Source of the DNA: a virus
Taxonomy: Duplodnaviria > Caudoviricetes
Reading direction: 5' to 3' (one strand)
IMG/VR virus record: IMGVR_UViG_3300014155_000001
Coordinates: 1 to 54,626 of that record
DNA length: 54,626 nucleotides
Shown: positions 4,926 through 54,626 of the stretch, one piece after another
How the letters are laid out: each line of letters begins with the position of its first letter
Position numbering within the stretch: the first letter of the stretch is position 1
Notes under the pieces: model-generated
What the model was told of the DNA's origin: nothing
The model's input: the letters and a program-made list of their open reading frames with translations, nothing else
The model's database searches: none
Program-made: the position numbers and the translations under genes

Positions 4926-5654
4926 TCAAATTACATTTTGCGCCGTTCCAAAAACTTCCTTCACCCATTCAGGGGAATAATCGCCCTTCCAAGTTGAATT
5001 ACAACTCCACGCTGCCGCCTTATCGCCGTCTTTAAGACCGCACCGGGCGTAATTCCGGGCGTGCCGCTGCCGGGTGTATTCATAACCAAGGTAGCGGTAG
5101 TGCAACAGCTTCAAGCCGACATCAACGGGATTGGTGGGGGTGTTTTCAAGGCCGTGTTTGCCACGAATCCATTGCAATCGGACATCGGGCTGAAAAACAA
5201 TCGGCTTGCTGTAAACCAGCGAATAAATGCCGTTGGGCGCAAGCTGCCAAATCTGGCTTGTCCCGTCATCTTTCGGCAGTCCTTCGTGCATCATCACATA
5301 ACCCGTGGTGGCCAGAATTTTGCACCGGCTTTGCAGGGCTTCCGCCAGGATGAATTTAAGCGAGCGGTGATACACAAATTCGTCAATGTCCGGCCAGATT
5401 ACCCACTCAAATTTTCCGGCAAAGGTCGGATAAGTCTCGTGCGCCAGTCGTAAAAAACTATCTTCGGAAATTCCATTGTCCTCGTCCCATTCATGCAGCT
5501 TCACCAGCGGATGCCCCGCCAGCAATTCCCGGCTGCCGTCGTTGCTCCGGTCATCCCACACATGGATTTCGTTTGCGATGGTTTCGTAGTGCCTTAAATA
5601 AAACGGAAGCATATCCCGTTCGTTGTAACACATGCTGCAAACAACAATTCTCAT
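4926..5654 (-). CDS. Glycosyltransferase family 2-like protein
   Basis: YNERDML, DDRSNDGS, WPDIDEF and LLHYRY motifs; start coupled to the upstream stop. Confidence 0.85.
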   Translation of the reverse strand: MRIVVCSMCYNERDMLPFYLRHYETIANEIHVWDDRSNDGSRELLAGHPLVKLHEWDEDNGISEDSFLRLAHETYPTFAGKFEWVIWPDIDEFVYHRSLKFILAEALQSRCKILATTGYVMMHEGLPKDDGTSQIWQLAPNGIYSLVYSKPIVFQPDVRLQWIRGKHGLENTPTNPVDVGLKLLHYRYLGYEYTRQRHARNYARCGLKDGDKAAAWSCNSTWKGDYSPEWVKEVFGTAQNVI

Positions 5655-30969: not shown

Positions 30970-32631
30970 TTACGTCAGAATCCACGGCACCGTGACCGTG
31001 GAGCACGAGCCGGTGAGGGTGATGTTGGTGCTGCTGACAGCCCACACGCCCAAGACGCCGACGAGTTGGTTGAGTTGAGCAACCAGGGCCGACAGCGTGA
31101 AGGTGCCGCCGAGGGCTTCGTGTTCGACCGGCACGCCATTGCACATGATGGTGTTGGCCTCGACCGTGTAAAAGCCAGTGGTGCTGTTCGTAACCGGCGT
31201 AACGGTGAGGGTGTAGGACGAACTGGTGTTGGTGCAGGACCGATTGGTGTCCGACTCGTAGTCCTGAGTGGGATAACCAGGATCAGACGCGCAGGTGTCA
31301 ACGACAATGATGCACTGCGGTTCGGCCTTGTGGAAAATCAGTTCCAGAAATTCCGTGTATTGCGGGCGGATGGCCATTTTGAAATCAGCGATGAACATGC
31401 CCTTGTTCCGGCGCTTGTTTTCAATGGGAATGCCATTTTGGTCCGCGCCCAGGTTGTCCATGACGAACTGCCAGCGCCCGGCAAAGTTGCGCGAGCTATA
31501 CGGCATTTCGGGATTGATGGGAGTGGCATCCGCCACGAGACACTGAATGGATTTGCGGTGCCAGATGTAGGTCCACCGATAGAGCGCGTTATCGAAGTCC
31601 CCGTTGGGAACGTCTTTGGTGCCCGCCGCGCCACCTGCGCCGCTGGACGGAATGTTTTTGAACGGCAGGACCACCTGATAGCGGTAGGCCAAGCCGGGCG
31701 TGGTGCCAACTGCGCCGACATAATTGAAGCGCAGGTTGAACGGGTCCGCGCGCACGACGTAATTGCCGATGGAGCCGGCGAAGGCATACTTCCAATACTT
31801 GGTTGAGGCGTCCCATTCGGTAAACCGCCAGTTGCCGGTAATGGACGGGGTGCCACCGATGCCCTGTTGCCCGCCGAGCTTGTCCAGTTCCCAAGTGGTG
31901 TCCATATCCGTGACCAACTCGATGTTGGGCGGCAGGTCTTTGAACGGTTGATGGCCGAAGTAACCAACACGGCACAGCGGTTGGAACCGGCGTTGAAGCA
32001 TCTGCGGCGTCAGCTTCTTGATGGACGAGGCGGGAACGTTGGTGTCAATGTACCATTCCTCATCATTGTTGGCCCCGGCCAGTACCCAGGCGAACTGGAA
32101 CGTGCCGGTGGTGGGATTGCCGAAGCTGGCGTTGGCCACCCATTGATAGTTGGCGAACATGGCCGCGCGTTTGCGGAGGAAGTTCGAGTTGATCGAGCTT
32201 GTGGCCGGCTTCAAAATGTCGGTGATGATTTGGCGGAAATGTTCCTTGGCGTGGGTGACGTGCATTTCCTGGTCGTAACAAAGCAAGGGCGTGGCCCAGG
32301 ATTGTTCCTCAAGGAAATAGGTCAGCCGCGAAGCACCCCAGGTGATGTAATTTTCAATCTTGTCACAAGGCGTGCCCAAGCAGTTGCCGGCTTGGGTGGG
32401 ACGCCACGTTTTGGTGACGTTCGGCGTGACGTGATTGAAGCGGTCCAGTGTGTGTTGGACGCCGGAGTTGGCGGGGAATTCGCCGGTTTCGACGTGAAGA
32501 ATCCAGCCATCTTCGGGCCGAATATCTTCAAGGATCAGCTTGTCATAGACAGGCTCTTGCGAAACCAACTGTTGCGTAAATTGACAGCCGGTGACAGTGC
32601 CGGGTGTCGGACAGGGACCAAAACTTGCCAT
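30970..32631 (-). CDS. Major capsid protein with C-terminal Thr/Ser-rich extension
   Basis: 553 aa; visibly strong codon bias; own promoter and long leader; position next to the virion genes. Confidence 0.75.
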   Translation of the reverse strand: MASFGPCPTPGTVTGCQFTQQLVSQEPVYDKLILEDIRPEDGWILHVETGEFPANSGVQHTLDRFNHVTPNVTKTWRPTQAGNCLGTPCDKIENYITWGASRLTYFLEEQSWATPLLCYDQEMHVTHAKEHFRQIITDILKPATSSINSNFLRKRAAMFANYQWVANASFGNPTTGTFQFAWVLAGANNDEEWYIDTNVPASSIKKLTPQMLQRRFQPLCRVGYFGHQPFKDLPPNIELVTDMDTTWELDKLGGQQGIGGTPSITGNWRFTEWDASTKYWKYAFAGSIGNYVVRADPFNLRFNYVGAVGTTPGLAYRYQVVLPFKNIPSSGAGGAAGTKDVPNGDFDNALYRWTYIWHRKSIQCLVADATPINPEMPYSSRNFAGRWQFVMDNLGADQNGIPIENKRRNKGMFIADFKMAIRPQYTEFLELIFHKAEPQCIIVVDTCASDPGYPTQDYESDTNRSCTNTSSSYTLTVTPVTNSTTGFYTVEANTIMCNGVPVEHEALGGTFTLSALVAQLNQLVGVLGVWAVSSTNITLTGSCSTVTVPWILT

Positions 32632-36100: not shown

Positions 36101-39100
36101 AACTTGGCACCCAGCTTTTCTGCCGCGCGTAAGTGTGCTGGACTGGTGGCGGTTGGTAGCAGCAAGGATTGAATCCCCTGCTTGGCGGTGGAGATAATTT
36201 GTAAACCGGGGGTTTTGGTTTTTACCAGTGTGGATAATTGTTGCGGCGTGCTCGCCACCGGGACCGGGTTTGGCGCGGCGGTTGTAGCACCGCCAAAACC
36301 CAAAGTGCGGATGCCTCCTGCGCCGCCGGCGCGCTGGTCAAGCAACGCGATAACATCTTTGAGCCGGGCACGCTGTTCCTTGCCGTAACTTTTGTAGGAT
36401 TTCGGGTCTGACCCCATGATGGCCACTTGACGGCGTAATGTGGCAGCGGCCTTGGCCGGATCGCCCCCGGCCATGCGCTGTGCGGCGTCGGCGGATTTGC
36501 CAGGGTCCACTTCGCGGACAACTTCTTGAATGCCGAACAATTCGTTTTGGGTCAACGTCTCGCCGCCGAAAGCGGTTTGTTCGGTTTTGGGCGGGACAAA
36601 CTTGGCTTCCTGGCCAACAAGATTGAAGGCGGTTTCAAGTCCGAGGCCGGGAAGTTCGCCAGAGGCGGCAGCAAGTTTAGCTTTTGATTCAGCCTTCGCT
36701 TCAAGTATGTCACGATATGCTAGGTCTGTGGCCGTGTATTTGGAACGGTCGAGGATGAATTGCTCGGATACGCCACGAGTCAACGCATCATTGATTGCGG
36801 TTTTGACTTGGTCCTCGGTCAAGCCAGCTAATTTCAGGCGGTCGGGCCGGAACGCTGTTCCTGCCGCGCTCCATTCATTGCCCATCTTGGCTTTTGTGCT
36901 GGCCCAAAAGTCCGTCAGGAATTTGGGCCAACGTACTTCCGGTGCTTTTCCGCCGACTTCGGCGACGAGGTCGGAATGGAGGGGCCAATTCCGCCAGCGG
37001 TCTAGTTCGGATTTCAGTTCGCCGACACGTTTGGCAACGCCTTCCGGGTCGCGCACGTCCACGCCTAACTTGCGGGCAAGTTCAGGGCGTTTGACCGCGC
37101 CTTGGACGGCGCGGATTTGTTCGGAAATTTGGCTTTGCTGTTCGGTGGCTCGCGCGGCCATTTCTTCGGCCTGTTTGATGGCGGCGTCATCGCGGCCAAA
37201 AAGGTCCACCTGTTCTGTTTGCCCGCCAGTTTGAGACTGGACGGCCTTGATGAAGTTTTCGATTTCAGCGGGCGAGCGGCCCTTGCCCGCCTGTTTTATC
37301 CCCAAAGCTTGCAGGTTTGCATCGTCGGGCGCGGCGGCGGCGATGGCTACGGCTTTTTCGGTGGCGATTTTGTCGGCGGACCAAAGGGAATAGAGGTCAT
37401 CGGAGGCAGATCGCGCCAGTCGGAAGGCTTCACGGCCTTTAACGCGGTCGAGTAAGCCGCGCGATTGTGCTTCTTCTTCCGTGAGTTCTGGAACGTATTT
37501 GAAGTAATGGGCATAATCTGCAATGGTGCCTTGTCCGTCCCGGATATTAGCTTCGGCGTCAAATGTCAAAGCCTTTTCCTTGGTGAAACCATCCGCTTCC
37601 CGGACAATTTGGACGGGTATGGTTTTTTCGCCGCTTCGTTTGGCCAAATCCAGACGGTGCCGGCCCGTAATAATTTCATGGTCGCCGTTGACCCGTTCCC
37701 AAAGAACAATGGGGGCCGTGCCCAAACGTTGATATTCCCCGGTAAGCCGTTCGTTGGGAACAACGCCAGTTACGGGGTCCGCATCGGCTTTGAAATTCGG
37801 AACGTCTTTGGAGAATTTAATTTGCTCTACGGGGAATTCGGCCATCGGGTGTTTCGATGTATCTGTAATCATCGAAGTGCCAAGCGGCGGCGCGACGGAT
37901 TCCGGGATCATGCCGACTGCGGACTCAATGTTGCGCGCGGATTCAATCGCCTCGCGTGGAAATTGGCCCATGCCGGTCATTTTGAATTCGGGGGTCGCAC
38001 CAATCTGATTTCTTTCCTCGGTGGTTTTGGCTGCCTTGAACTTTTCCAAAGCAGCGTTACCAATCTGGCTGATTTGTCCCCGTGCTTTTTCCAGGGCAGC
38101 AATGACCGGCGCGGCTTTGGCATCGCCCAACTGCCGCAAATACAAACCAATTTGGTAGGCGGTTTCCTGATTGTAAAAATCGTTGCGCGTGTGACGCTGG
38201 AACAAGTTGACCCACCATTGCGGATCGTGAACAGCATCCCCAGCGGCGTGAAAATAACGCGCCGAAATCGAGGGGCGAGTCACGCCTTTGGAAACAAATG
38301 CTTCTTCTGGTTTGGTGAATTGGTCCGGGGTTGGTTCTGGCGGCGTCAGTGGTACTTCACCGGGCGGCGCTCCGGGTATTGGGCCGCTTCGTGCGCCAGT
38401 TGGCGGGCTTGGCTCAGGGGCGGGCACTTGCCGTGCGCTTTCTTCCGGGATTGTGGGTTGCTGCACAGGCCGAAAAACCGTTTCTGTTTCTTTGTGTAGG
38501 GCATAGTCTTGTTGGGGTGTGGTTGTTTCGCCCCAAGCCAATTTGCGCAGGTCGCGGGCTTGTTCCCGTGACAGTTCGGCTTTGGGGAAAAGGTCTTGAA
38601 TCTGCCGGATGGTTTTGGCTTGAGCGTTGCGAATGGTTTCAACGGAAGTTTCACGCGGTTCAACAGGCGTGCCCGGCACTGTTGCCCGTGGCAGCATCCG
38701 GCCTGGGTCCGGCACGGTTGGAGAGGGAATGCCGCGAGTGGGCACGCCGGGAATCGGTCCCAAGTCAGGCGGCGGTTCAGGCACGGCCCCAAGAGGACGT
38801 TGCATGACCGCGCCAGTGGCCAGCGGGCCTTGGAATGGTCCTGGTTTGGCGGGTGTAAATGAGCGTTTTAGGCCAATGGCACCAACTACGGAAAAACCAA
38901 CTGTTTGAATACCTTCGGAAACCAAACTGGTAATTTTGTCCGGGTCTTGCTGGTCCTTTGGTTTGCCGAGTTCATCGCCCAAAGCCGTAGCAATTTGGGG
39001 TGTGTCACTCATCATTTTGGCGGTGAAGCCGGCGAGAATTAACTTTTGAGCGGCGGCAGGCAGGTTGCCAATGGCCAGCATGGGCGCGGTGCCTGCGATA

Positions 39101-39642
39101 CCTTGGGAAATTTTGCCGACCGTTGCCCAAGTCGGAGCGTCCGCCGAAGCCTCTTTCAATTTCTCATCAATTGGAAGCGGTTCACCCAAGGCAGCAGCAG
39201 CCAGGTTATGAAGCTCGTAGTATGGCTCGCTGCCAGCTTTGGTTTCAGCCACGTCCGCTGGAATAGCGCGGGCAACATTCCCGGCATAGGACAGTGCCCG
39301 GTTGACTTGTTTTCCACCTGGAATAGCTTCGATAATTGCGCCGGGTGCAGCGGTGGCGGCACGATACACGTTGGCGGCAGATTCATCCGAACCGCCCCGG
39401 CCCGAAACGATGTCCGTTGGCGTCATGGACAGGTCACGGCTGGGATCAGTTGTGCCGGTGGCCAAGTAGGACTTTTGGTACGGGTCGAGTTGGACTTTGG
39501 ACGTATCGAAACGCGGCGCGGGCGGGGCAGCTTTGGCGTAAAGTTCCCACGGTTTTTTCGCAGCAAACATTTCCCAAGGCTTTTGGGTCGCCTCGTCGTC
39601 GCCAGTGGCCACGGGGGGCGCGATGTCCATTGTGTCGGCCAT
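33199..39642 (-). CDS. Large internal virion/ejection polyvalent protein with ParB-like and HExxH metallopeptidase domains
   Basis: PIVLW...IITGRHRL.LAKR (ParB/Srx); LAHEIGHQLD...E..A (zincin); start placed at MADTMD. Confidence 0.8.
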   Translation of the reverse strand: MADTMDIAPPVATGDDEATQKPWEMFAAKKPWELYAKAAPPAPRFDTSKVQLDPYQKSYLATGTTDPSRDLSMTPTDIVSGRGGSDESAANVYRAATAAPGAIIEAIPGGKQVNRALSYAGNVARAIPADVAETKAGSEPYYELHNLAAAALGEPLPIDEKLKEASADAPTWATVGKISQGIAGTAPMLAIGNLPAAAQKLILAGFTAKMMSDTPQIATALGDELGKPKDQQDPDKITSLVSEGIQTVGFSVVGAIGLKRSFTPAKPGPFQGPLATGAVMQRPLGAVPEPPPDLGPIPGVPTRGIPSPTVPDPGRMLPRATVPGTPVEPRETSVETIRNAQAKTIRQIQDLFPKAELSREQARDLRKLAWGETTTPQQDYALHKETETVFRPVQQPTIPEESARQVPAPEPSPPTGARSGPIPGAPPGEVPLTPPEPTPDQFTKPEEAFVSKGVTRPSISARYFHAAGDAVHDPQWWVNLFQRHTRNDFYNQETAYQIGLYLRQLGDAKAAPVIAALEKARGQISQIGNAALEKFKAAKTTEERNQIGATPEFKMTGMGQFPREAIESARNIESAVGMIPESVAPPLGTSMITDTSKHPMAEFPVEQIKFSKDVPNFKADADPVTGVVPNERLTGEYQRLGTAPIVLWERVNGDHEIITGRHRLDLAKRSGEKTIPVQIVREADGFTKEKALTFDAEANIRDGQGTIADYAHYFKYVPELTEEEAQSRGLLDRVKGREAFRLARSASDDLYSLWSADKIATEKAVAIAAAAPDDANLQALGIKQAGKGRSPAEIENFIKAVQSQTGGQTEQVDLFGRDDAAIKQAEEMAARATEQQSQISEQIRAVQGAVKRPELARKLGVDVRDPEGVAKRVGELKSELDRWRNWPLHSDLVAEVGGKAPEVRWPKFLTDFWASTKAKMGNEWSAAGTAFRPDRLKLAGLTEDQVKTAINDALTRGVSEQFILDRSKYTATDLAYRDILEAKAESKAKLAAASGELPGLGLETAFNLVGQEAKFVPPKTEQTAFGGETLTQNELFGIQEVVREVDPGKSADAAQRMAGGDPAKAAATLRRQVAIMGSDPKSYKSYGKEQRARLKDVIALLDQRAGGAGGIRTLGFGGATTAAPNPVPVASTPQQLSTLVKTKTPGLQIISTAKQGIQSLLLPTATSPAHLRAAEKLGAKLGAMNRRAEATAFALRAVSKFFDRLGVHNEKLTPDKNPGIKFMSDMSQGRPLTGRFQLAAYKIKKLFQERLDKLDAAGASVQSVRDNYFPGMWTHESRLAFNAAMEEAEKQGMIPKNSDVNAATPAQKAWVKARVDQFIKAGTGSEADMMAYFTRRPFKGRESFRKEKVFDDIMTGAEFGLRPISNNPIDLVKGKLAEMDKSIMANEFFQHLKADGELKIINPYEETPEGWVRLNDKYGTIYGPPTVTVPEHIDKAVYEGLLDFAGKLGIKHERSMKFPPGPGNRALGLSYQSQDFVRTRFATETSVLAHEIGHQLDYRYNFWKTFVTEAVGLGKKGVQTKEASQKQRAKIKEELRNIADLTGSRGGDPRKKTEQIAQMVEAYVHAPEKMQEVAPTVFKVFDGFIHSKPELKGLADIKPGIELEELTSEKYVGLPIKGYRIVPKATGDIVNNYLSSSIYNNKYFGGLYRTWMGTANALNQSQLGMGSAFHAGFTTGDVQVSAGATLIKDVYGVLRGNRSLADLANTAKNWTVASVKTAMTGDKVLNAWRNPDGVIDPRIAQVVKATELGGGGYKLEHGMQTEQTTQMVRDWYSGSRIKAAARSPIALTELMMKPIMDYLVPRQKAGVFADLAWRIIEQNPGKPLEELTPQFRQAWNRVDARLGQVRYNRLFSNNTAKNVVQGLVRAPGWSGGTIAELGGAFPDAAKFFQEWHKTGKLPENIPDRVAYTMSLLATVATANAVLTYAFTGQTPTGMDFLAFRTGRKDKDGNDERFLLPTYVKDLLAYSKQPLTTVWHKSHPLLSVINDVANNRDFYGYEIRNPNAPAAQQAGQVSKYVIKSFEPFWTRGARKSAEAGATPARLAAPYVGIMPAPAYITRSSIQNQISELYHKRTGERLKPYESRTADETKRAARDASTMDIYMFKRLPKSDQAALARKMSPAEKARYGAESVTSATDIRQAAPWAIAAP

Positions 39643-39644
39643 AG

Positions 39645-40460
39645 TTATTGTGAGGCGGGCACCGCTTCCCAATTTTTCGGGTCGGTCAGTTCGCCGCCTT
39701 TGAATGTATAACCATTCACCACGTCACCGGCTTTCGGCAAGTTGGACGCGGATGCGGCGGCAGGCGCAGCGGGCGCGGGCGCAGGTTGCGCGGCCCGGAA
39801 AGCAGAGGCAGGGTCGGTGCCGACAGGAACTTTGACACTTTCGGTCAGTTGCGTTTTTTCTGTACCGCGTTTGTAGGGTGTGCCGGGTGTAATCCCCGTG
39901 GTGATACCAAGCCGGGAGAGCAACCCAATTTGGGAAGTTGTAGCCGGTTTGGACGCAACGGCATCACTTGTGGAATGCCGGGTCATGGTTTCTTCTGGTC
40001 CCGGTTTGGAAACACCACTGGCAAGGCCCGGCTCCCAGGCGCGCGGGTATTTTGCCAACGCTTCGGCGGGCGACATGCCACCGGCAATGGACATTGCGTA
40101 ATTCTGGCGGTCGGCCAAAGTGCTGGCCTTGTCCTGTGTGGCCTGTTGCAATTTTTGCGATTCAAGGTTGAGCCGGTTTTTGGCGATGCCAAGGGTTGCC
40201 TGATGATAGGCTTGAGCTACTGCCGCCTGGGTTTGTGAGCGTTGGAAATTGGCGACCAATGTTTCGCGGCGGATTTGCGCTTCCATCGCGGCCTGCCGTT
40301 CCGAAGCGTCGAGCCGTTGCTGTTCCATGCCAAGTTGGGCGTTGGCTTGTGCGGTGTGCTGGGCCAATTCTTGACGTTGCAAGTTGACTCGTGCGCCTTC
40401 GGCGGCGGCTTGGCCGAATTGGGCCGGTGTTACATCCAACCAACTAGGAATTGTAGGCAT
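39645..40460 (-). CDS. Putative DNA ejection protein
   Basis: Q/A-rich coiled coil; C-terminal G.V.NGY.FKGG..DPKNWE. Confidence 0.65.
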   Translation of the reverse strand: MPTIPSWLDVTPAQFGQAAAEGARVNLQRQELAQHTAQANAQLGMEQQRLDASERQAAMEAQIRRETLVANFQRSQTQAAVAQAYHQATLGIAKNRLNLESQKLQQATQDKASTLADRQNYAMSIAGGMSPAEALAKYPRAWEPGLASGVSKPGPEETMTRHSTSDAVASKPATTSQIGLLSRLGITTGITPGTPYKRGTEKTQLTESVKVPVGTDPASAFRAAQPAPAPAAPAAASASNLPKAGDVVNGYTFKGGELTDPKNWEAVPASQ

Positions 40461-42378: not shown

Positions 42379-42957
42379 TTACGGAATGGTGATTATGTAT
42401 CCCCCCGCCAAAAGTGTTCCATTGATGACGTTGGACTGGATTCCCAGCGAGTCCTGATAATAAATCAGTTCCGCCCCCGGAGTGTTGAACGTGTCCCCCA
42501 AACTGCCGAATGAAGCGGTCATTACTCCCGGCATGACATAGGTACAAATCATGTTATAGCCATTTGAATCGGTTCCCCCGGTAATATCTTCAATGTACAA
42601 TTTCCCGATTATGCCTGGTAAAAATCCAGAACCCGTGATGGTAACAACGTCTTTGGTGAGGTCGAAGTAGGTCGGATAAATGCTGTCAATAGTATAGGTG
42701 GTGGCCACGTCCACTATGTCTGACCGTCCGGCCAAGAGGACTCCATTTCTGACATCACTGATTTGTTGGACGATTCTCAGGGCCGAACCTGCATCTACGG
42801 CAGTATGGGCATACGAATTAAGGGCGGTGCTTAATCCGATATTAACGACTTTGGGAGCGCCAACGGCAATCTGCATTGAGACGATGTCGGCAACATGAAT
42901 CTCCGTGGTATCAGTACCATTGGAGAAAATGACGGATGGTTCCAGTTTTACACTCAT
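42379..42957 (-). CDS. Virion accessory protein with IPT/TIG-like motif
   Basis: TIDSIYP...VTITGSGF. Confidence 0.6.
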   Translation of the reverse strand: MSVKLEPSVIFSNGTDTTEIHVADIVSMQIAVGAPKVVNIGLSTALNSYAHTAVDAGSALRIVQQISDVRNGVLLAGRSDIVDVATTYTIDSIYPTYFDLTKDVVTITGSGFLPGIIGKLYIEDITGGTDSNGYNMICTYVMPGVMTASFGSLGDTFNTPGAELIYYQDSLGIQSNVINGTLLAGGYIITIP

Positions 42958-45545
42958 GGGGTGACGGGTGGGGCACGTTGCGGTTCGGGGATGACATCGG
43001 CGATAAAGCGTGCGCCCAAGAAGCGGCACGGGCCGGTCATTACCAGTTTGAATTGAAAATTGTAGCCTTCCCGCAACGGGCGGTTGTTCACGGTATCGAA
43101 CACGTTTCCGTCTGGTGAGGGCAGGCCGACGCGCGGGCGGAAGCCGGGATCAGTGTTGGGAGTGTAGGTTTGGGTCCAAGAATACCACGGCACCCAATTG
43201 GGCCATTGGTCGGGCTTGTAAAAGGCTTGGAACTGGACCGGGCCGATGATGCTGTCTAAATAAAATTCGGCGTAATCGAGGCGCTTGTAATTATGCTGTC
43301 CACTTTTGCGGTCGCCGAAGTCCAGCATGGGCGACTCAAAGTAAGAGGTGATGGGAGTTGTGCCGTCATCATAGCTGGCGGCCCCGCTGGGAAGAATTTC
43401 GTGCAATTCAATTTGGGTCAGGTCAGTGCTGAGACAGAGGGCGAAGCAACGCTGCACGCCGTTGAAGTAACACGCCGATCCGTCAGGAGCCGACACGAGC
43501 TTGAGCACATTCAAGCCGGTCCATTCTCCATCCCAAGCCGATTGCTGTTTTTCCCGCAAGCTGCTAAGAGGGTCAAAATTCAGGGCCAAGATGGACGTGT
43601 AGCAAACACCGCGCGGACTTTGCACAGGCATGGCCGCGAGTAAATAGCGATTGTCAAAAACCGTGGAACTATCAAAGCCCAACAGTGATTGGTTTTCGAG
43701 GTCCAGCACGCGCTGCATTTCCCGGCTGATCGGAGTATTCCCCCAGCGGTTGAAATCGAGCCGGGCCATAAGCAGGGACCGCAAATTGCCATCGGAGGAA
43801 CGGAACAACAGATCGCCGTTGGCGGGGGAAACGGCGTCTTGACTGGTGCCGCCACCGCCTTTCAGGGATTCGACAAGAATGGGATTGGTCAAACTTTGCC
43901 AAGTGGTGCGGTCCACGGGCGCTTGGCAGGCAAAAATGTTTTGACTGGTGAACACCTGTAATGGTCCCTGTCCGAGCGAGGCATCCAGCAGGGAAACAAA
44001 TTGCATGGCCTTGATGTCGCCAACAGAGCCGGGCACGCGGAAGGTGCCACCGCCCGCCAGGTACTCGTTTTCCGAAATATAAAGAACGGAATCACGGAAG
44101 TTGTTTTGGATCGAACCACTTTGACCGCCGACGATGTCACCCGCCAGAAAACTGAGGCCGTCCGGCAGGGAAAGCCAGACGCGGCCCATGCCATAAGTAC
44201 CCATGCGTCCGGTCGGCAGTTGGGGAATGGAAAGTATATCGGTCGGCGCGGTAACGGTGTTCAAGGGTGTGTCGTTGACGTTTTGCACCGTAATAACATT
44301 GCCCGATGGCGATGGCGGAACGGCGATGATGGAATAGAGAAATCCGCCAACGGTGACGAGCAAGTTGTCTGCGCCGGTATAAGCGGCGGTAAGATGAGCG
44401 GTGGCGGTAACGCCCGTGGACGGTACAGTGAACGGTTGCGACAAAGTACCAACTGTTTGCACCGGGTAACTCGTGCCGTTCTGGTAAAACGCTTCGTACT
44501 GCGAAGGAACTGGCGTCAACCAATTATTCGGGATGGTTTGAACGTTGGTCAGTGCGATGAAAGGGTTGGAGTCGTAGGGCAGCGCCACGATTCTGAGATA
44601 GGACGTGTCATATACGACAGCATTTGAATCCACCCAACCTATCACCTGAAACAGAACCCCATTCCATAGTATTTGAGCGCCGCTTGCGCCGTAGGCTCCG
44701 GTGTAACTTCCGGTTATGGGTATGTGGAGTTGGCCGCTTTTGGCCGGGAGTGAGTGACCGGATGTATTGTAATAAAAATTGCTCGGCAAGCCCGACGTGT
44801 TGCCGGTATAAAAGACAACGTTAGGATTGTAGAGAATTTTTGTGCCAATCGGCCAGGGCGAACTGGTTCCGGGGTCGGCATAATTGGTGAGATTGGCCTG
44901 ATAATCAAAGCCAGAGGGCGCAAGGGTTTGATAGGTGGCATCACCAATTAAAACGGTCTGTCCATAGTTGCCACCAAAGTTGCTGGCCAAAGTGACGGCG
45001 ACGGTTGATCCAACGGAAGGAACAATGAAATTAAGCGCTACAACTCCCAAGAGGGTTTGCAAACCATTGTTGGACCGGAAGGTGTTCGTGCCGTCAAAAA
45101 AAACTGGCGCGCTGATGCCGTCATTCCAGATCAAATAATTTTCAGCTTCAAACAGCCAGGCTTGCGAGACACCAGCGGGGTTGGGATCGCCGGGAATGGT
45201 CCGGTCGGTTACAGTGGCATTGCCTGATTGGTCGGGGGTGATTTGAAACAAACGGCCAGCGACAGCGGCCATGATGGATTCCGGGCCGGCATCGGGTTTG
45301 TAATAACTGACGCCTTGAAACAGGCCGGTTTGAAAATTGATTGCCGTGTGCGTGTCGGCATAGGAAAGGGCGATGGTCTGAAAGGCGGGGCGCGGGTTAA
45401 AGAAGTCGCTCCGAATGGTGCCGTTCCCGGCGTAAGCCAGTTGGCCCTTGGGAAGCAATAGCGGGTCAATGCCGCTGTTCATTCCTTGCGGAAAAGACGC
45501 TAGAAAATCGGAAACTTCTTTGGTTTTTTCAGCCACACTATCCAA
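42954..45545 (-). CDS. Tail nozzle / stabilisation protein (P22 gp10 or T7 gp12-like) with a low-complexity insertion
   Basis: 863 aa, beta-rich; S/T/Y/N-rich central insert; context. Confidence 0.65.
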   Translation of the reverse strand: MDSVAEKTKEVSDFLASFPQGMNSGIDPLLLPKGQLAYAGNGTIRSDFFNPRPAFQTIALSYADTHTAINFQTGLFQGVSYYKPDAGPESIMAAVAGRLFQITPDQSGNATVTDRTIPGDPNPAGVSQAWLFEAENYLIWNDGISAPVFFDGTNTFRSNNGLQTLLGVVALNFIVPSVGSTVAVTLASNFGGNYGQTVLIGDATYQTLAPSGFDYQANLTNYADPGTSSPWPIGTKILYNPNVVFYTGNTSGLPSNFYYNTSGHSLPAKSGQLHIPITGSYTGAYGASGAQILWNGVLFQVIGWVDSNAVVYDTSYLRIVALPYDSNPFIALTNVQTIPNNWLTPVPSQYEAFYQNGTSYPVQTVGTLSQPFTVPSTGVTATAHLTAAYTGADNLLVTVGGFLYSIIAVPPSPSGNVITVQNVNDTPLNTVTAPTDILSIPQLPTGRMGTYGMGRVWLSLPDGLSFLAGDIVGGQSGSIQNNFRDSVLYISENEYLAGGGTFRVPGSVGDIKAMQFVSLLDASLGQGPLQVFTSQNIFACQAPVDRTTWQSLTNPILVESLKGGGGTSQDAVSPANGDLLFRSSDGNLRSLLMARLDFNRWGNTPISREMQRVLDLENQSLLGFDSSTVFDNRYLLAAMPVQSPRGVCYTSILALNFDPLSSLREKQQSAWDGEWTGLNVLKLVSAPDGSACYFNGVQRCFALCLSTDLTQIELHEILPSGAASYDDGTTPITSYFESPMLDFGDRKSGQHNYKRLDYAEFYLDSIIGPVQFQAFYKPDQWPNWVPWYSWTQTYTPNTDPGFRPRVGLPSPDGNVFDTVNNRPLREGYNFQFKLVMTGPCRFLGARFIADVIPEPQRAPPVTP

Positions 45546-46332
45546 TGATGTGATACATCACGACATCAACGCAGGAACTTAAAGTAACGTTGCCATCGGT
45601 GATGGCAGTGATGATGAATGACCCCGGCGTGCCCGGTGTGATGGAAGTGATTTTGTAACCCCCCCAAGACGTGCGGTGCGCGGCAGTGGCATCGGGAGTT
45701 TGGAGCGTGACAACAATCATGCTGTTGGCGGTGATGTTTTTGGTGCTGACCGTGAACGTGCCGCTGCTTAGTGTGGCAGCCCCAGCTTGAACGGGTAGCG
45801 CGGTCAACAGAGCCGCATAGGTCGTTACTCCTGTTCCGCCCTGGCTCACGCTCAACGGTGTGGACAGGGCGTTGAGCGAAGTAATGTCGCTGTTGGTTCC
45901 GCTGGCGGCGGCTCCGAGATTAGAGCGGGCAGTTGAGGCGGTCGCGGCTCCGGTCCCGCCGTTGGCTACGGTGGTCGGATAAGTAATCGCCGCTTGAATA
46001 CCACCCGGCGTAACCACAGCCCCGGAAGCGATGATTACAGCCGGCGCGGAATCCCCGGTATATTCCAAAAACTTCAACGAGACAGATGTGAACGGCGACA
46101 CCGGGGCCGACGCCACCTGAAATGTGCCAAGATTAGTGCCGTCACTGATGAAAATTATTTGGCCAACGGCCATCCACTGACAATTGGCCACGGCAACAAT
46201 GACGGTGCTATTTTGTGCCGGCAGGGTGGTTGCCGTGGTTGTGGTGGTAAATGCGTTCTGACCTGACGTGCCTGGAACATTGACGGCAGGGACAGAGGGA
46301 CAAGGCGTACAACAATCGCTCAAAGTGCTCAT
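45538..46332 (-). CDS. Tail fibre/collar-like virion protein
   Basis: VANGGTGA..A..AR.NLG and PLSV.QGGTG fibre repeats. Confidence 0.75.
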   Translation of the reverse strand: MSTLSDCCTPCPSVPAVNVPGTSGQNAFTTTTTATTLPAQNSTVIVAVANCQWMAVGQIIFISDGTNLGTFQVASAPVSPFTSVSLKFLEYTGDSAPAVIIASGAVVTPGGIQAAITYPTTVANGGTGAATASTARSNLGAAASGTNSDITSLNALSTPLSVSQGGTGVTTYAALLTALPVQAGAATLSSGTFTVSTKNITANSMIVVTLQTPDATAAHRTSWGGYKITSITPGTPGSFIITAITDGNVTLSSCVDVVMYHIIG

Positions 46333-49286: not shown

Positions 49287-50582
49287 TTATCCATTGCCTG
49301 CGGCAAGGCGATCAAACGCTTCATCCACCTCGGCGTAGGTTGTGGGCGGGCCTTTCTTGCCGGCTTGTTCGACCTTGTGTGCCTGGCCCCGGCCCGGTTC
49401 AGACTTTTCGTAGCCAGCCAGTTTATCCTGGAATTCTTTCTTCGCGTCATCGCTCTGTTTCAGCCGGAATACGAGACGGTCATAGGCGGCGGCACGATTG
49501 CGAACGGCACTGTGCAGCAGGGTCATTTCCGATTGCGGCAACCGGCCATTGACGAGCTTGGCCTGAATGGATTGCGGCAATTTTGAAAACTCTGACGGGT
49601 CAAGGACGCCAAAGGCCAGATCGGTCAACCGGATGCCTTGTTCCAAGAGCGCGTTACCCTTCGGGTCGGCGGCGTCCGGCGCGAAATACTGCGGATATTT
49701 TTCAGCGGCATGAGCATTGGCGGAATGCCAGCGTTCGCTGATTTCCTTGTGCTGTTTGGTCAGCCCTTCCCGGATTTGAATTTCGCGTTCGCCGCCTTGC
49801 TTGCGGAAATCGTCCACGGCGGCACGCATCTGGCCGTGCAGGTCAAGCACCTTGTCGCGCAGAACGGTTACGCGCGCGGCGCTGTGTCCAAAGTGTTCGG
49901 CGATGAAGGTGTTGGCGGCTTCCTCGTCCTGAATGGCCATGAGCGCGTCCCAATCAGCCTCAGTGCCCTTGCGCGATTTGCCCGGTTCAATGACGCCCCC
50001 GAATTCATCCGTTTTGTCGGGGTCTTTGAACGTCAAGGCGGCGGTAACTTTCTGTCCTTGCTCGTAGGCTTTGAGGAAAGGTTGCTGGTACTTGTCCTTG
50101 TATTCCTGGCTGCGTTCGTAGTTGGCGAACTTGAGTTCGGTTTCGAGTTCGGCGCGGGTTTTGTTCCATTCCTCGCGGGACTTTAACAGTTGTTCCTTTT
50201 CCGGGTCGGGCTTGGGCTTGGCGGCGTCGGCAACCAATTTTTCATATTTGCCTTTCCAGTCAGCAGCTTCGGTGCGGGTACGGTCAAGTTCTTCGCGCAG
50301 TGTGGCTGCTTTTACTTTGGTTGATGGCGCGGTTTCGCCGGGTGGTTTTGTTTCTGGCGCGGGCTTGGTTTCGCCGGGCGGTTTTGTCTCGGCGGCGGGC
50401 TTGGTTTCCGGGGCGGCTTTTTCTTCATCTGCCGTTTTGGTTTCAGGTGCCGGTTTTTCGTCAGGCGGCACGGCAACCAGGGCATCAAAGCCGGCAAAGG
50501 CTTCATTCAGGTTGGGCGTGGACCGGGTCGAGGTATCGGCGGCAGGTGCGGCAGGCGTCGGTAAAGTAGCGGCTTCGGGCAT
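49287..50582 (-). CDS. Putative capsid scaffolding protein
   Basis: P/E/T/K-rich N-terminus with PETKP-type repeats (50330-50460), followed by coiled coil. Confidence 0.7.
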   Translation of the reverse strand: MPEAATLPTPAAPAADTSTRSTPNLNEAFAGFDALVAVPPDEKPAPETKTADEEKAAPETKPAAETKPPGETKPAPETKPPGETAPSTKVKAATLREELDRTRTEAADWKGKYEKLVADAAKPKPDPEKEQLLKSREEWNKTRAELETELKFANYERSQEYKDKYQQPFLKAYEQGQKVTAALTFKDPDKTDEFGGVIEPGKSRKGTEADWDALMAIQDEEAANTFIAEHFGHSAARVTVLRDKVLDLHGQMRAAVDDFRKQGGEREIQIREGLTKQHKEISERWHSANAHAAEKYPQYFAPDAADPKGNALLEQGIRLTDLAFGVLDPSEFSKLPQSIQAKLVNGRLPQSEMTLLHSAVRNRAAAYDRLVFRLKQSDDAKKEFQDKLAGYEKSEPGRGQAHKVEQAGKKGPPTTYAEVDEAFDRLAAGNG

Positions 50583-50585
50583 AAA

Positions 50586-50807
50586 TTATTTGAGTTTTTT
50601 GAAGGTCAAAATACACTTGTTACGCAACAGGTTTTTTATTGGTTCTCCATTGTTGTTGCCTAACTTTTCCAATTCGACATGAGCAAGGCCATGAGTCTCA
50701 TTCCCGATTTCGACGAGAGATTTCAACAGCATAGGAATACCACTAGGGCATACATCAAAGCACAAAATCGGGCTTTTGAATTGGTCGGGCATTCGGGCCA
50801 TAATCAA
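50586..50807 (-). CDS. Hypothetical protein
   Basis: Coupled ORF with lower GC. Confidence 0.45.
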   Translation of the reverse strand: MIMARMPDQFKSPILCFDVCPSGIPMLLKSLVEIGNETHGLAHVELEKLGNNNGEPIKNLLRNKCILTFKKLK

Positions 50808-51073
50808 ACTTTGTGGTCTAGTTGGTTGGTTGGCGGTGGCGTGGTGGTCACGGTGGACGTGTTCAGGTTTTCCAGAATGCGCCGGAAACTGTCCGCGCCT
50901 TCCTTGCGCCAGCGGTTCGCGGCGGCGGTGGTAACATCGCCGGCAATGACGAGGGACAGGTCATGCTCCCGCGAAGCCGCGTCCAGTGCGGCCTGCATTT
51001 GGTCGCCACCGATCAAATCGTTGTAACCTTTGGTCAGGGACCGATTGGCGCGAAAATTGTCACGGGGCGTCAT
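50804..51073 (-). CDS. Bbp19-like head-module protein
   Basis: A.RW.KEGA..F..IL pattern; upstream of the scaffold gene. Confidence 0.5.
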   Translation of the reverse strand: MTPRDNFRANRSLTKGYNDLIGGDQMQAALDAASREHDLSLVIAGDVTTAAANRWRKEGADSFRRILENLNTSTVTTTPPPTNQLDHKV

Positions 51074-51315
51074 ACGGGTACTGGCGGGGTCAGGAAATTT
51101 TCATCAACGCCGTGCTGAATAATGGGGGACAGTCCCGCAAGCAGGGCTTCAAGGGTTTTAGCTTTCCAGCTTTGTTCCAGAATTTTGTCCAAATTGAAAG
51201 GTGGGGAATCAGCCCCTTCCGCGACCAACTTGAAGTCAACAATCCAAGGGTCATCATCGGTTGGGATGGGGACGTATTGAATTTCAACTTTGATTTTGGA
51301 CAACACGTTCTTCAT
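51070..51315 (-). CDS. Hypothetical protein
   Basis: Start MKNVLS, ATGA-coupled. Confidence 0.55.
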   Translation of the reverse strand: MKNVLSKIKVEIQYVPIPTDDDPWIVDFKLVAEGADSPPFNLDKILEQSWKAKTLEALLAGLSPIIQHGVDENFLTPPVPV

Positions 51316-51464
51316 AGAAATTTGGGCCGGCTGCCACCGCCTTTTTTCTTGCGCGGGCGATGGACCTTGAGTTTGCGGTCGTAAACCGGCTCTTGGCTCA
51401 CCAGCTTTTGGAGATGGCTGCAACTGCCGCAACTTTGCGGATTGCCTGGGGTTGCGTTGTTCAT
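51312..51464 (-). CDS. 50-aa peptide carrying the capsid N-terminal motif LVSQEPVYD and a basic tail (not in the ORF track)
   Basis: MNNATPGNPQSCGSCSHLQKLVSQEPVYDRKLKVHRPRKKKGGGSRPKFL; ATGA-coupled at both ends. Confidence 0.8.
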   Translation of the reverse strand: MNNATPGNPQSCGSCSHLQKLVSQEPVYDRKLKVHRPRKKKGGGSRPKFL

Positions 51465-51709
51465 TTGCGCGATGTTCCGGTTGAGGTTTTGCCCGCACGT
51501 CCGCCACGTCCTATCCGCGTGCTTCCGCGCTTGCCGCCCATTTTGTCCGGGCCTTTAACCTTCGTGTTCCGCAAGTTCTGATTGTCGGCATGGGTGCGGA
51601 TCGCCTTGGACAAAATCTTTTGCATGGCGAAGGGTGCAACCGGAATCCCGGCAGGCCGGGGCAGAAATGAGGGCAAAGCTGGCGTGATGACGGTGGCTGT
51701 TTCGTTCAT
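51461..51709 (-). CDS. Small basic protein (G/R/K-rich tail)
   Basis: First gene of the scaffold operon. Confidence 0.6.
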   Translation of the reverse strand: MNETATVITPALPSFLPRPAGIPVAPFAMQKILSKAIRTHADNQNLRNTKVKGPDKMGGKRGSTRIGRGGRAGKTSTGTSRK

Positions 51710-51823: not shown

Positions 51824-52048
51824 ATGGGCGAATTTGAACTATGTCATTGCGGGAAACCGTTGCATTACCTTAATCCGAAGGTCGAGGCGCTGGTTCGCGC
51901 GATGGTCCAAGAATTGGGGCCGACCGTGCCGGTGGTAGTGGACGATCATACTTGGCTGGTGCCGCGCCATTTTATTGCACTGCACGGTTTGAGGGCACAG
52001 GATTTGCCCGCGCTCGGTTTTCAAGAACTGAAAAAATGTCCGAAGTAA
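51824..52048 (+). CDS. Hypothetical protein
   Basis: CHCGKPLHY...W.VPRH.IA.HG. Confidence 0.65.
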   Translation: MGEFELCHCGKPLHYLNPKVEALVRAMVQELGPTVPVVVDDHTWLVPRHFIALHGLRAQDLPALGFQELKKCPK

Positions 52049-52069
52049 AAAACGTCAAAACCACCACCT

Positions 52070-52414
52070 ATGAAAACAATAAAAAAAGCCAAACAGCAAC
52101 AATCCTTAGCAATCGCGCGGCGGACCAAACTTCCAGCACTGGCAACGTTCACGCCAATTGGCCCATTCTACGGGATGACTGTTCCTGATGGAGAAATACA
52201 AATGGCACGCGGATTGTGCGCAGGGAAAGCTATTGTCATGTTGAAAACGCACCACAACAAAACCGGGAATGTTCACGCCTTGGGGTTCAGTATTCCATCG
52301 TTGATGGTTATGATTGCACTGGCGGCGCGCATGATGCCTTTCAACGTCATTCTGCCCATGCCACAAGAGCCAGAAAAAAAAGCGAGCAAAGCCAAAGCCA
52401 AAAAGAAAAAATAA
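52070..52414 (+). CDS. Hypothetical protein
   Basis: 114 aa with basic termini. Confidence 0.55.
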   Translation: MKTIKKAKQQQSLAIARRTKLPALATFTPIGPFYGMTVPDGEIQMARGLCAGKAIVMLKTHHNKTGNVHALGFSIPSLMVMIALAARMMPFNVILPMPQEPEKKASKAKAKKKK

Positions 52415-52752
52415 TGACTTTGGGCAAATACAAACTTGATGCCCACGGCGAACCAATACCAGAGCCGGACCTGCTGACTTGGGCGGCATGGCTTGAAACC
52501 GCTGACCGGCACGTTGCCTTGGACATAATTGGCACGACCCGCATTTCGACTGTATTTCTCGGTCTGGACCATAACTTTTCCGACCAAGGCGATCCCATCT
52601 TGTGGGAAACAATGGTGTTCAATGGACCCTGCAATCAGGAACAGCACCGTTGCGGTGGTTCCCGCGAACAAGCCGAGGCCATGCACGCGCGCGTGCTGGC
52701 CGAAGTTCAGGCCGAAATGGGCGTTAATGTTGAAACCGGCAACCCAAGTTGA
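52414..52752 (+). CDS. Phage hypothetical protein
   Basis: ISTVFLGLDH...PILWETMVF motif; start MTLGKY. Confidence 0.75.
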   Translation: MTLGKYKLDAHGEPIPEPDLLTWAAWLETADRHVALDIIGTTRISTVFLGLDHNFSDQGDPILWETMVFNGPCNQEQHRCGGSREQAEAMHARVLAEVQAEMGVNVETGNPS

Positions 52753-53153
52753 TTATGGACGAATGGATTGATCCTTGTGAAATAGCCAGACGTAAACATG
52801 AGGCGGCTTGCAAAAAGTTTATTGGCCAACTGACCAAAAACATTCGCATGACACAAATGTTTTACCTCGCGGAAATGTTGTTGTGCGCCGTCAACGCTGG
52901 CTTGGGGCTGCACGATCTCATCTTGGCTTGGGTAGAGAATTTTCTATGGTTGGGGTTGTTTATGTTTTTCTGTCAGGCCAGTGCCGCTGTGTTTTTAGGA
53001 TGGTGGGGATTGCGTAGTCGTCGCCGTGTGCGCACCTTGCGCGCCTTGCGCAAGAACATGGTCGGGGTGATGAAGGCCAAAACTCCAATTCAGGTCGAGC
53101 ATTACATGGCCCAAGGCAACACTGCGATGCGAAACTTAATCGCCAACCGATGA
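52749..53153 (+). CDS. Membrane protein
   Basis: Two hydrophobic segments followed by a basic patch. Confidence 0.6.
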   Translation: MIMDEWIDPCEIARRKHEAACKKFIGQLTKNIRMTQMFYLAEMLLCAVNAGLGLHDLILAWVENFLWLGLFMFFCQASAAVFLGWWGLRSRRRVRTLRALRKNMVGVMKAKTPIQVEHYMAQGNTAMRNLIANR

Positions 53154-53383
53154 AATTCAGACCCCAACGCGCGGGGTTGGATGAATCCATGCTTGAAGTG
53201 GTAGAATTGGCTCCCACGCTTCAAGCTTTGGCCATTCATTTAGGAATCAAAGACGAAAGGCGGATCAGTGTGGAACGCTATTGCTACGACTCCCGAATCA
53301 AATGGGATACTTATGTTGTCACGGTTGACGGGCAAGGGGTAGGGTTCACAGATGGTCCGGTTGATTCAATCGCCAACCGTTGA
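53150..53383 (+). CDS. Hypothetical protein
   Basis: FRPQRAGLDESM...YD.RI.WDTY.V...GFTDGP. Confidence 0.65.
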   Translation: MKFRPQRAGLDESMLEVVELAPTLQALAIHLGIKDERRISVERYCYDSRIKWDTYVVTVDGQGVGFTDGPVDSIANR

Positions 53384-54626
53384 CGCTTCGAGGACGATTT
53401 CGGGCGGGGGAATTTCCTCGTCGGTGAACTTGATCCCGGCTTCTTCTTCGGCGGTGATTTCGCGCAGGATGTCGGCCAAGGCTTCAACGCTGGCTTCGGC
53501 TCCATCCGGCAACAGGTCGGCCTGTTCGTTCATCGTGCGGGCAACTTCGGTAGGGGTGTCGCCGATGGCCACGAGCCAGCCGATTTCCTCGATGGGCGGG
53601 CCGTCCGAAGGAAACCAGATTTTGCCGTCCAGTTCGCAACAGTCAGAAACTTTCAGCCAGGATTTAAGTTCGTCCGGGATGATGAACGAGGCCCAAGCGT
53701 CCGTTTCGCCCTTGATTTTGACCATGCACTCGGCGGAATACTTGTAGCCGTAATCAATTTCGACAAGCTCGCCGTTCGCGCCGTGGTACAGGACTTCGGG
53801 CAAGTTTTTGGCACTCAGGAAAGAGGCGGTTGAAGGCAGTCCACCGCGCGTGGTGGCGTCAATAAAGTAGGATTCATCGTCGGTGACTCGGACTTCCATT
53901 GACCACTGACAGCTATAACCAGTTTGGGCGAGAAACGGCGAGAACGCATCCATGATATGGGTAAGTTCGTCGGGCATTTCCCGTTTGGCGGTGACGGCGG
54001 CAAAGTAGGCTTCATCTTTTTTCTCAATTCCGTGCAGCATGTTTGCCGGCCATTGGCCATGAACGCAATAAGTATCGCCGCCAATTTCGAGTTTGGTTTT
54101 TATTTCATCAAACACGAGAAACGGGACGTGTTCCTTCAACCCGCCCAACTGCACGGCCCACACGTCGAGTTTTTCGGCATCTTCTTCCCAACTGCGCCAG
54201 TGTTTGGTTTCCCACGAGCCGCGCCACATGGAAACCTTGATGTATTGGTCTTTTTTGTCTTTGAGATATTCGGCCAAAGCGGACAGTCCGCGAATGAGTT
54301 TGTAAGGCGGTACGGCCAAGCCAAGCTCACCAAGTTTTTTCAAAAAGAATTCGCGGTCAAGTTCCAGCTTCATCCCGGCCCCGGCACCCCAAACCCGGCA
54401 ACCTTGCTGGCGTAATTCAGCCTGCAACCCGCCGTGGTACAGGTCCGGGAACACAAACAGGTCAATGCTCTTTTTGAGCACCCAAAAATCATTGCACCGG
54501 ATGATGTCCCCGAAACCGGCACCGATAATGCCTTCATTCAGGGTGGGATAACCCTTTTCCCAAGGTGTGTAGTAGAGCACCCGGCCAAAGGACTCGGCCA
54601 GCCGGCGAGCGAGCGGCAAAAAAAAG
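53366..54626 (-). CDS. PurD-like ATP-grasp ligase (about 435 aa including 1-170)
   Basis: VWG...KLELDR.F.K..L.ELGL.VPPY...YIK; E.RV...FIDATTRGGLP resembles the PurD IEFN.RFGDP motif. Confidence 0.8.
   Translation of the reverse strand, partial: FFLPLARRLAESFGRVLYYTPWEKGYPTLNEGIIGAGFGDIIRCNDFWVLKKSIDLFVFPDLYHGGLQAELRQQGCRVWGAGAGMKLELDREFFLKKLGELGLAVPPYKLIRGLSALAEYLKDKKDQYIKVSMWRGSWETKHWRSWEEDAEKLDVWAVQLGGLKEHVPFLVFDEIKTKLEIGGDTYCVHGQWPANMLHGIEKKDEAYFAAVTAKREMPDELTHIMDAFSPFLAQTGYSCQWSMEVRVTDDESYFIDATTRGGLPSTASFLSAKNLPEVLYHGANGELVEIDYGYKYSAECMVKIKGETDAWASFIIPDELKSWLKVSDCCELDGKIWFPSDGPPIEEIGWLVAIGDTPTEVARTMNEQADLLPDGAEASVEALADILREITAEEEAGIKFTDEEIPPPEIVLEASTVGD
54504..54626. repeat. Second copy of the terminal overlap
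   Basis: Identical to 1-123. Confidence 0.97.

Follow-up and report, generated by a model that had tools for sequence, protein, structure and literature searches.

Why should a phage carry, besides its major capsid protein, a second small protein that opens like the N-terminal arm (N-arm) of that capsid and ends in a polybasic tail? The question is raised by a gene at 51312..51464 on the minus strand of the window, by which we mean the whole stretch of DNA analysed, 54,626 bases in length and identical with the entire record of an uncultured wetland phage. The gene, whose assignment draws on the open reading frame (ORF) listing, its homologues and dN/dS, encodes a protein of 50 aa, MNNATPGNPQSCGSCSHLQKLVSQEPVYDRKLKVHRPRKKKGGGSRPKFL. 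An earlier reading of this DNA (the sequence-only reading) had called it a hidden peptide that mimics the capsid N-terminus, and had proposed several roles for it, namely a free N-arm that fills the N-arm site at the portal vertex or tethers DNA, a regulator of assembly, or a decoy for capsid-sensing defence. Below we consider how far the likeness goes, whether it is maintained by selection, how it is distributed among relatives, and which functions would fit.

A partial copy of the capsid N-arm

The small protein falls into three parts. The first is a short, variable N-terminus, and the second is an N-arm-like motif of 16 residues (residues 14-29, SCSHLQKLVSQEPVYD, 51378..51425, minus strand), whose last nine residues are those of the capsid. 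The third is a polybasic tail (residues 30-50, RKLKVHRPRKKKGGGSRPKFL, 51315..51377, minus strand) with 10 K/R, no D/E and a net charge of +10, so that the strongly basic tail described earlier is indeed present. The nine shared residues, LVSQEPVYD, are residues 21-29 of the small protein and residues 22-30 of the 553-aa protein encoded at 30970..32631 (minus strand), which begins with MASFGPCPTPGTVTGCQFTQQLVSQEPVYDKLILEDIRPEDGW; the distance of the motif from Met1 is thus nearly equal in the two proteins. A degenerate back-translation of LVSQEPVYD matches the window exactly twice, at 32542-32568 and 51378-51404, both on the minus strand, and none of 100 dinucleotide shuffles contains two or more such matches. 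The two 27-mers differ at 8 of 27 bases, spread over six of the nine codons and synonymous throughout, including Ser TCG versus AGC, which confirms the earlier statement that nine identical residues are written with six differing codons.

The likeness extends beyond these nine residues. It spans the stretch from a shared Cys to a shared Asp, SCSHLQKLVSQEPVYD in the small protein and GCQFTQQLVSQEPVYD in the capsid (capsid residues 15-30, 32542..32589, minus strand, delimited by alignment with the small protein and by capsid relatives), followed by one gap and a shared Arg-Pro. When the peptide was compared by blastp with all stop-to-stop frames of at least 25 aa in the window, the capsid N-terminus was the sole significant match (E 4.3e-4, 12 of 22 residues identical), the next, unrelated one having an E value of 1.1. 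Likewise, a profile built from the small proteins matched no window frame besides the capsid N-terminus and the small gene itself. Past the motif the charge is reversed, KLILEDIRPED in the capsid versus RKLKVHRPRKKK in the small protein, and thus the peptide cannot copy the entire N-arm interface. On the strength of the significant likeness, the same distance from Met1 and the recurrence in relatives described below, we regard the small protein as a partial paralogue of the capsid N-arm.

The protein from which the motif would have been copied has no Pfam or PHROGs match, and its identification comes from structure prediction. The AlphaFold2 model has a mean pLDDT of 80.0 and a pTM of 0.69, with residues 1-28 below a pLDDT of 50 in the monomer, and a Foldseek search of the PDB with this model gave 228 matches at E <= 0.001, with the capsids of N4, Moo19, DEV and Pan3 foremost at a probability of 1.00 and the phage N4 capsid (9e99_A) at the top (E 4.7e-12). 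An Atlas look-up pointed to an N4-type capsid as well. By its modelled fold, then, the 553-aa protein is an HK97-fold major capsid protein nearest to that of phage N4. The N4-like capsids (N4 gp56 and DEV gp77) are its closest solved folds, at a sequence identity of 12%. In N4 and DEV the capsid N-arm, residues 1-46, is described as remaining in the mature shell and contacting neighbouring subunits, and the sections of these two papers drawn on here do not mention a free N-arm paralogue (PMC11768535, PMC11445570). Among 159 capsid relatives at E <= 0.001, 43 full-length ones were aligned, and the pattern F.Q.LV.Q.P.[YF]D..I..D.RP..W is visible in most of them. Its retention down to 22% identity marks it as a functional part of the capsid N-arm.

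The small gene is conserved and under selection

A short ORF may be spurious, and non-conservation had been named beforehand as something that would speak against the proposal. The ORF proved to be conserved. Scans of viral contigs found the small gene in nine other records at 45-86% identity, and a metagenome scan added only four further loci. A profile search of 5.8 billion proteins returned 40 homologues at E <= 0.01, every one of them 40-56 aa long. One locus (L018, 50% identity over residues 2-23) was dropped because its translation has neither motif nor tail. The peptide is an ORF as claimed; it is not hidden, since an identical protein (P0002) and 39 relatives have already been predicted in a public collection, where P0002 and its relatives are annotated as hypothetical proteins. 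No Pfam or PHROGs family matches the peptide. Across ten coding sequences, dN/dS was 0.09-0.54 in the 30 of 45 pairs for which dS could be computed, the other 15 being saturated at silent sites. Moreover, the TATGA overlap of the small gene's stop with the start of the next gene is found in all seven relatives examined. Taken together, these comparisons identify the small ORF as a genuine, selected gene. An alternative frame, a 145-aa ORF at 51070..51507, was rejected, as its upstream part is not a single ORF in relatives and dN/dS favours the 50-aa frame.

The residues that are conserved are informative. Across 33 aligned, diverse members, Met1, Q19, V22, P26 and D29 alone are near-invariant, and the last four coincide exactly with the positions common to the capsid (pattern Q..V...P..D). 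In fuller form the motif reads Q..V.Q.P.[YF]D and copies residues 20-30 of the capsid. No Ser, Thr or Lys position is conserved, and D29 is the sole conserved acidic residue. The cysteines of CGSC were considered as a zinc site and discarded, as they are not conserved in L015-L017. Other members match the capsid at places different from those matched by the window's protein, for example QFTQALVNQEPVYD in L038, and GCKFGQPLVDQQPVFD beside the capsid's GCQFTQFLVDQEPVYD in G002. In P0039 and P0040 the half-motif is doubled: LVNQLPR[FY]D and, after a short spacer, VYDR[KR]LKVHRP, the first copy having the P-R-[FY]-D form that the distant capsid clade typically shows. The tails are conserved in a different manner. 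Their net charge is +7 to +12 in all 31 members scored (those, out of 33, matched by the motif pattern), while their length varies from 13 to 34 residues and their sequence is variable; a constant charge on a variable sequence and length fits non-specific binding of a polyanion.

A scan of genome contigs with the small-protein alignment gave eight pattern matches, none of them a relative; prophages offered no clue to the host. Among the matches listed in a search of sequencing runs there were five wetland DNA runs and no RNA run.

The motif follows the capsid only across the deepest split

The sequence-only reading had itself offered tracking of the capsid in relatives as a test. Pairs of small-protein and capsid 16-mers were taken from 29 genomes; L105 and L119 were dropped because the pattern missed their capsid motif, leaving 27 pairs, 25 of them distinct. 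True pairs share a mean of 8.44 of 16 residues versus 7.86 for shuffled pairs, a value reached by 81 of 20000 shuffles. This excess lies wholly between clades: in the window and 70% clades (n=8) true pairs share 9.38 residues versus 9.39 when shuffled, and in the 50% clade (n=17) they share 8.00 versus 7.99, so that tracking inside either clade is zero.

At the deep split between clades, the capsid changes from LVSQEPVYD to LVDQTP[KR]FD and the small protein from LV[SN]Q[EQ]PV[YF]D to, mostly, VDQTP[KRQ]YD. A per-column comparison finds four of seven capsid changes mirrored in the small proteins of the far clade: T to P at motif position -11 (P in 13 of 17), S/D to D at -6 (D in 15 of 17), E to T at -4 (T in 12 of 17) and V to K/R at -2 (K, R or Q in 11 of 17). 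The capsid changes at -13, -9 and -1 are not mirrored there. Because the parallel changes sit on one deep split, they represent few independent events. The co-variation of the two motifs in these alignments is therefore real but coarse, and the predicted tracking holds across the deepest split and fails within clades.

Recent gene conversion from the capsid gene would be another way to keep two copies alike, and it is ruled out by codon use: identical residues share the same codon in 96 of 211 cases, versus the 94.4 predicted by codon usage in four genes of the window. That the codons agree no more often than by chance indicates that the likeness is held at the protein level. This result, together with the dN/dS values above, bears out the suggestion made from the window alone that selection acts on the protein.

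A coupled gene in a head-assembly operon

The small gene is joined to both neighbours by ATGA overlaps, as had been noted before. On its 5' side, the stop of a gene for an 82-aa basic protein (51461..51709, minus strand), which is conserved in relatives, overlaps the ATG at 51464; on its 3' side, its TGA at 51312-51314 overlaps, at 51315, the ATG of an 81-aa gene (51070..51315, minus strand) that occupies a variable slot. Beyond this slot the gene order in relatives places a conserved 89-aa gene (50804..51073, minus strand), followed by a gene for a protein of about 430 aa, 431 aa in the window (49287..50582, minus strand). The order conserved in relatives is thus 82-aa basic protein, small gene, variable slot, 89-aa gene and ~430-aa protein. 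The last is rich in Pro/Lys/Glu repeats, and the 431-aa protein has no Pfam or PHROG match; in G003 its homologue immediately precedes the capsid gene, and in G002 it is close upstream, separated from the capsid gene by a single gene. We call it a putative scaffolding protein because of this position by the capsid gene and its composition only. The same holds for the term scaffold operon used in the earlier reading. From the overlaps and the gene order, the small gene is predicted to be translationally coupled inside a head-assembly operon. In N4, according to the portion of the structural paper used here, the scaffold was not identified (PMC11445570), whereas a scaffold-like gene is present in the window's phage group.

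The slot downstream of the small gene is variable in content. Its occupant is the 81-aa gene in the window and a 78-aa gene in L015; L017 has two genes there, of 59 and 100 aa, whereas the slot is empty in L011, L013, L014 and L016, where the 89-aa gene comes directly next. In L015 the junction is duplicated around the inserted 78-aa gene (L015:5132-6007): a 68-aa ORF (5372..5578) combines the first ~56 residues of the 89-aa family with the small-protein tail (KKKGGASKPKFL) and is followed by an intact gene of the 89-aa type, an arrangement that resembles a scar left by recombination at an insertion hotspot. In L011 an ORF of 146 aa past the 89-aa gene appears HNH-like by eye. Upstream, an extra ORF of 54-55 aa lies between the 82-aa and small genes in two relatives (L011:4840-5004 and L013:4837-5004), with an ATGA overlap at least on its downstream side and a tail, RRPKKGQHSPRFL, like that of the small protein, and without the capsid motif. 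A Cpn10/GroES gene (PF00166) is present in the head operon of relatives (L035:9711-10001, E 2.4e-18; L030:11901-12221, E 3.2e-23); in G002 it lies immediately ahead of the small gene, and in other relatives it follows the scaffold gene.

An accessory gene

To describe the distribution of the small gene, the capsid was taken as the point of reference. A scan of viral contigs with a capsid alignment, using its 11 closer rows, gave 80 loci with 50-86% capsid identity. When their six-frame translations were searched with a profile, 26 of the 80 loci proved to have a small basic ORF on the strand of the capsid gene and some 2-3.7 kb upstream of it, a count that includes one longer paralogue (L048). 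In addition, 24 whole records of the 57-66% capsid clade, chosen for having no small ORF near the capsid gene, were searched throughout. The small-protein profile matched the capsid N-terminus in all 24, as it did in G001 and G002; a further small frame was found in two (G013 and G030) and was missing in the other 22 under a first-look filter that could miss very divergent copies. The small gene is also absent from G003. All records without it, these 22 and G003, retain the capsid motif. A gene that is absent from many relatives with the capsid motif is an accessory part rather than a core one, and by this distribution the small gene is dispensable in some lineages.

The longer paralogue (L048:440-763, in G013) is a 108-aa protein without a Pfam match, encoded ~9.5 kb from the capsid gene. 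It starts with MNRRGFFSS..., which by eye resembles a twin-arginine signal, and continues with ~45 residues like the capsid N-terminus (SCAQFTQFLVDMQPQYDEAIIRDMKETDPW...).

Candidate functions

What, then, could a free copy of the N-arm do? The reading that we put first, tentatively and aware that it may well prove wrong, is that of a packaged internal head protein, with a motif that docks at the capsid N-arm site in the procapsid and a tail that binds DNA. The gene would have originated by duplication of the 5' end of the capsid gene, and selection on the protein would have held the motif since. During procapsid assembly, the motif would dock the peptide on the partner of the capsid N-arm, be it the scaffolding protein, as in 80alpha, or, as in mature N4, the N-arm groove that an adjacent capsid subunit offers on the inner surface; the docked peptide would thereby be carried into the head, where its polybasic tail would bind and neutralise packaged DNA. 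On this view the peptide is an accessory protein of the head interior, with a copy of the capsid's own N-arm serving as its address tag. We arrive at this reading because the only conserved part of the protein is the N-arm copy, to which a polybasic tail and a position in the head operon are added. Three sequence results speak against it: the apparent loss of the gene in 22 of the 24 whole records and in G003, the lack of tracking within clades, and the reversal of charge past the motif. A complex prediction with capsid residues 1-465, scaffold residues 130-431 and the peptide scored 0.00, which counts neither for nor against binding.

The closest parallel to such a packaged protein is found in phage T4, whose internal proteins, small, diverse and often basic, enter the head by way of a shared targeting sequence (CTS), a common short N-terminal address that loads them onto the scaffolding core, according to the portion of the T4 paper used here (PMC3012670). 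The T4 proteins are located inside the head, a place that is proposed for the small protein. Their address is a dedicated tag, whereas the common sequence here copies the capsid's own N-arm. Furthermore, the T4 tag is removed by a prohead protease, and a Pfam and/or PHROGs scan of 19 window proteins revealed no prohead protease family, so that a cleavable tag of the T4 style is not supported; as most proteins of the phage match no family, the missing protease is weak evidence. Short, highly basic, DNA-condensing core peptides within a capsid are also known from adenovirus (mu and VII); these arise by proteolysis of precursors, copy no capsid motif and belong to an unrelated virus lineage. The addressing of accessory proteins into phage heads is known for few systems.

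The evidence from the motif, namely the near-invariant residues and the profile match to the capsid N-terminus, applies equally to an assembly regulator that is not packaged, which we consider possible but somewhat unlikely. The free N-arm copy would compete with capsid N-arms for the scaffold or for the groove of the neighbouring subunit, and in this way time or limit assembly, cap unassembled capsid protein, or aid the release of the scaffold. Such a role would suit a small gene that is co-translated with the scaffold operon, and competition by a copied docking motif has a precedent. In phage 80alpha the C-terminus of the scaffold binds the capsid N-arm, and CpmB of SaPI1, like the small protein a second protein that copies a short docking motif of the capsid-scaffold contact, competes with the scaffold for it, as far as the sections of that paper drawn on here describe (PMC5644958). 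By the same sections, CpmB is satellite-encoded and copies the C-terminal motif of the scaffold, whereas the small protein is phage-encoded and copies the capsid side (PMC5644958). A CpmB-type copy of the scaffold's C-terminal motif was not encountered here, the small-protein profile matching only the capsid N-terminus in the window. Another capsid paralogue is Ccm of SaPIbov5, which redirects assembly and which the source, in the part used, presents as a satellite-encoded homologue of the capsid protein (PMC8569155), whereas the small gene copies only ~30 N-terminal residues and is encoded by the phage. Loss of the gene in many relatives speaks against a core regulatory step, and simple competition needs no conserved polybasic tail.

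In what is copied, the N-arm copy differs from both the CTS proteins and CpmB, and full-text literature searches brought up no account of a freestanding capsid N-arm copy. If the phage re-uses a copy of its own N-arm as an address or a competitor, this would be a new kind of short-motif mimicry in an assembly pathway, and Q..V.Q.P.[YF]D would be a defined docking element in a large group of uncultured phages with N4-like capsids. The small gene would also be a clear-cut case of gene birth from the ~30 opening codons of a structural gene, with selection retaining the new gene thereafter.

The lack of tracking within clades, together with the polybasic tail, would agree with a third and unlikely explanation, in which the duplicated 5' end of the capsid gene was exapted as a small nucleic-acid-binding or regulatory protein and the motif is retained for some cause that has nothing to do with capsid contacts. 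Also in keeping with such a protein are the basic product of the adjoining 82-aa gene and, in L011 and L013, the 54-55-aa ORF, whose tail is similar. However, the sole near-invariant residues are exactly those common to the capsid family, and four of the seven capsid changes at the deep split are mirrored in the small protein, both of which argue against this explanation.

A fourth proposal, which we find quite improbable, takes the peptide as a capsid N-arm acting in trans. It would insert at acceptor sites of the inner lattice that lack a partner in cis, such as those around the portal, where the shell lacks a penton, and would then either anchor packaged DNA by its tail or be joined to the shell by an ATP-grasp enzyme encoded nearby. 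If true, this would be a new way to complete or cement an HK97-type shell from inside.

A co-occurring ATP-grasp protein

The enzyme in question is a 417-aa protein (53366..54619, minus strand) with no Pfam match. Its model (pLDDT 80.8) has an ATP-grasp fold, the top Foldseek matches being GAR synthetases (PurD, E 3.5e-13), with biotin carboxylase also close. Besides the window, the gene is present in all 12 searched records with the small gene or the long paralogue, and in 5 of 23 without the small gene (Fisher 7.4e-6, uncorrected for kinship). In L108 and L152 the stop of the ATP-grasp gene overlaps the start of the small gene. In each of the five records with the ATP-grasp gene but no small gene, a member of the 82-aa family comes next. 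In the window, ORFs of 74, 114, 178 and 134 aa lie on the plus strand (51824-53153) between the ATP-grasp gene and the operon of the 82-aa and small genes; since these two are adjacent in distant relatives, the plus-strand block looks like an inserted module.

Both the co-occurrence and the overlap in L108 and L152 would be expected if the motif were a shared recognition tag, by which the ATP-grasp protein or another enzyme recognises both capsid and peptide. We consider this very unlikely. The capsid motif is retained in 18 records without the enzyme, the fold is nearest to small-molecule ligases, which argues against a peptide-modifying enzyme, and the co-occurrence may be plain linkage within one module. 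The precursors of graspetide-type RiPPs likewise have an adjacent ATP-grasp ligase, as here (upstream, and directly adjacent in L108 and L152). However, the graspetide ligases are of peptide-modifying kin, whereas this one folds closest to GAR synthetase and biotin carboxylase, and graspetides have a conserved core of Ser/Thr or Lys with Asp/Glu, whereas D29 is the one acidic residue conserved here, and no Ser/Thr/Lys position is.

An anti-defence decoy, which would soak up a host sensor of the capsid N-terminus, is highly improbable. The accessory, patchy distribution of the gene would suit a decoy, and capsid-sensing defences exist, as the consulted portion of one study describes (PMC11312562). 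Against this, the gene lies in a late head operon, coupled to structural genes and with no defence-related gene nearby, and a protein that reproduces the sensed epitope should set off the sensor rather than block it. Finally, chance resemblance in a non-coding or wrongly framed ORF, which only the small size would suggest, is refuted by conservation, dN/dS, recurrence in relatives, and the shuffle and blastp results.

Other proteins of the window

Among the 19 window proteins scanned, Pfam and PHROGs assign families only to some replication genes, TerL and a tail-fibre-like protein. An ORF of 2157 aa (33199-39672, minus strand) immediately precedes the capsid gene; it has no Pfam match, and a HEIGHQ sequence of the HExxH type is seen in it by eye. 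Its product may be a giant protein of the virion or of ejection, as an N4-like capsid would suggest. The tail-fibre-like protein (264 aa, 45538-46332, minus strand) has tail-fibre PHROG matches (E 1.1e-8) and a K1-lyase C-terminal domain (PF24146, E 1.1e-6). The stop of its gene overlaps the start of an 863-aa ORF (42954..45545), which shows 29-33% identity to a frame just beyond the TerL match in G003.
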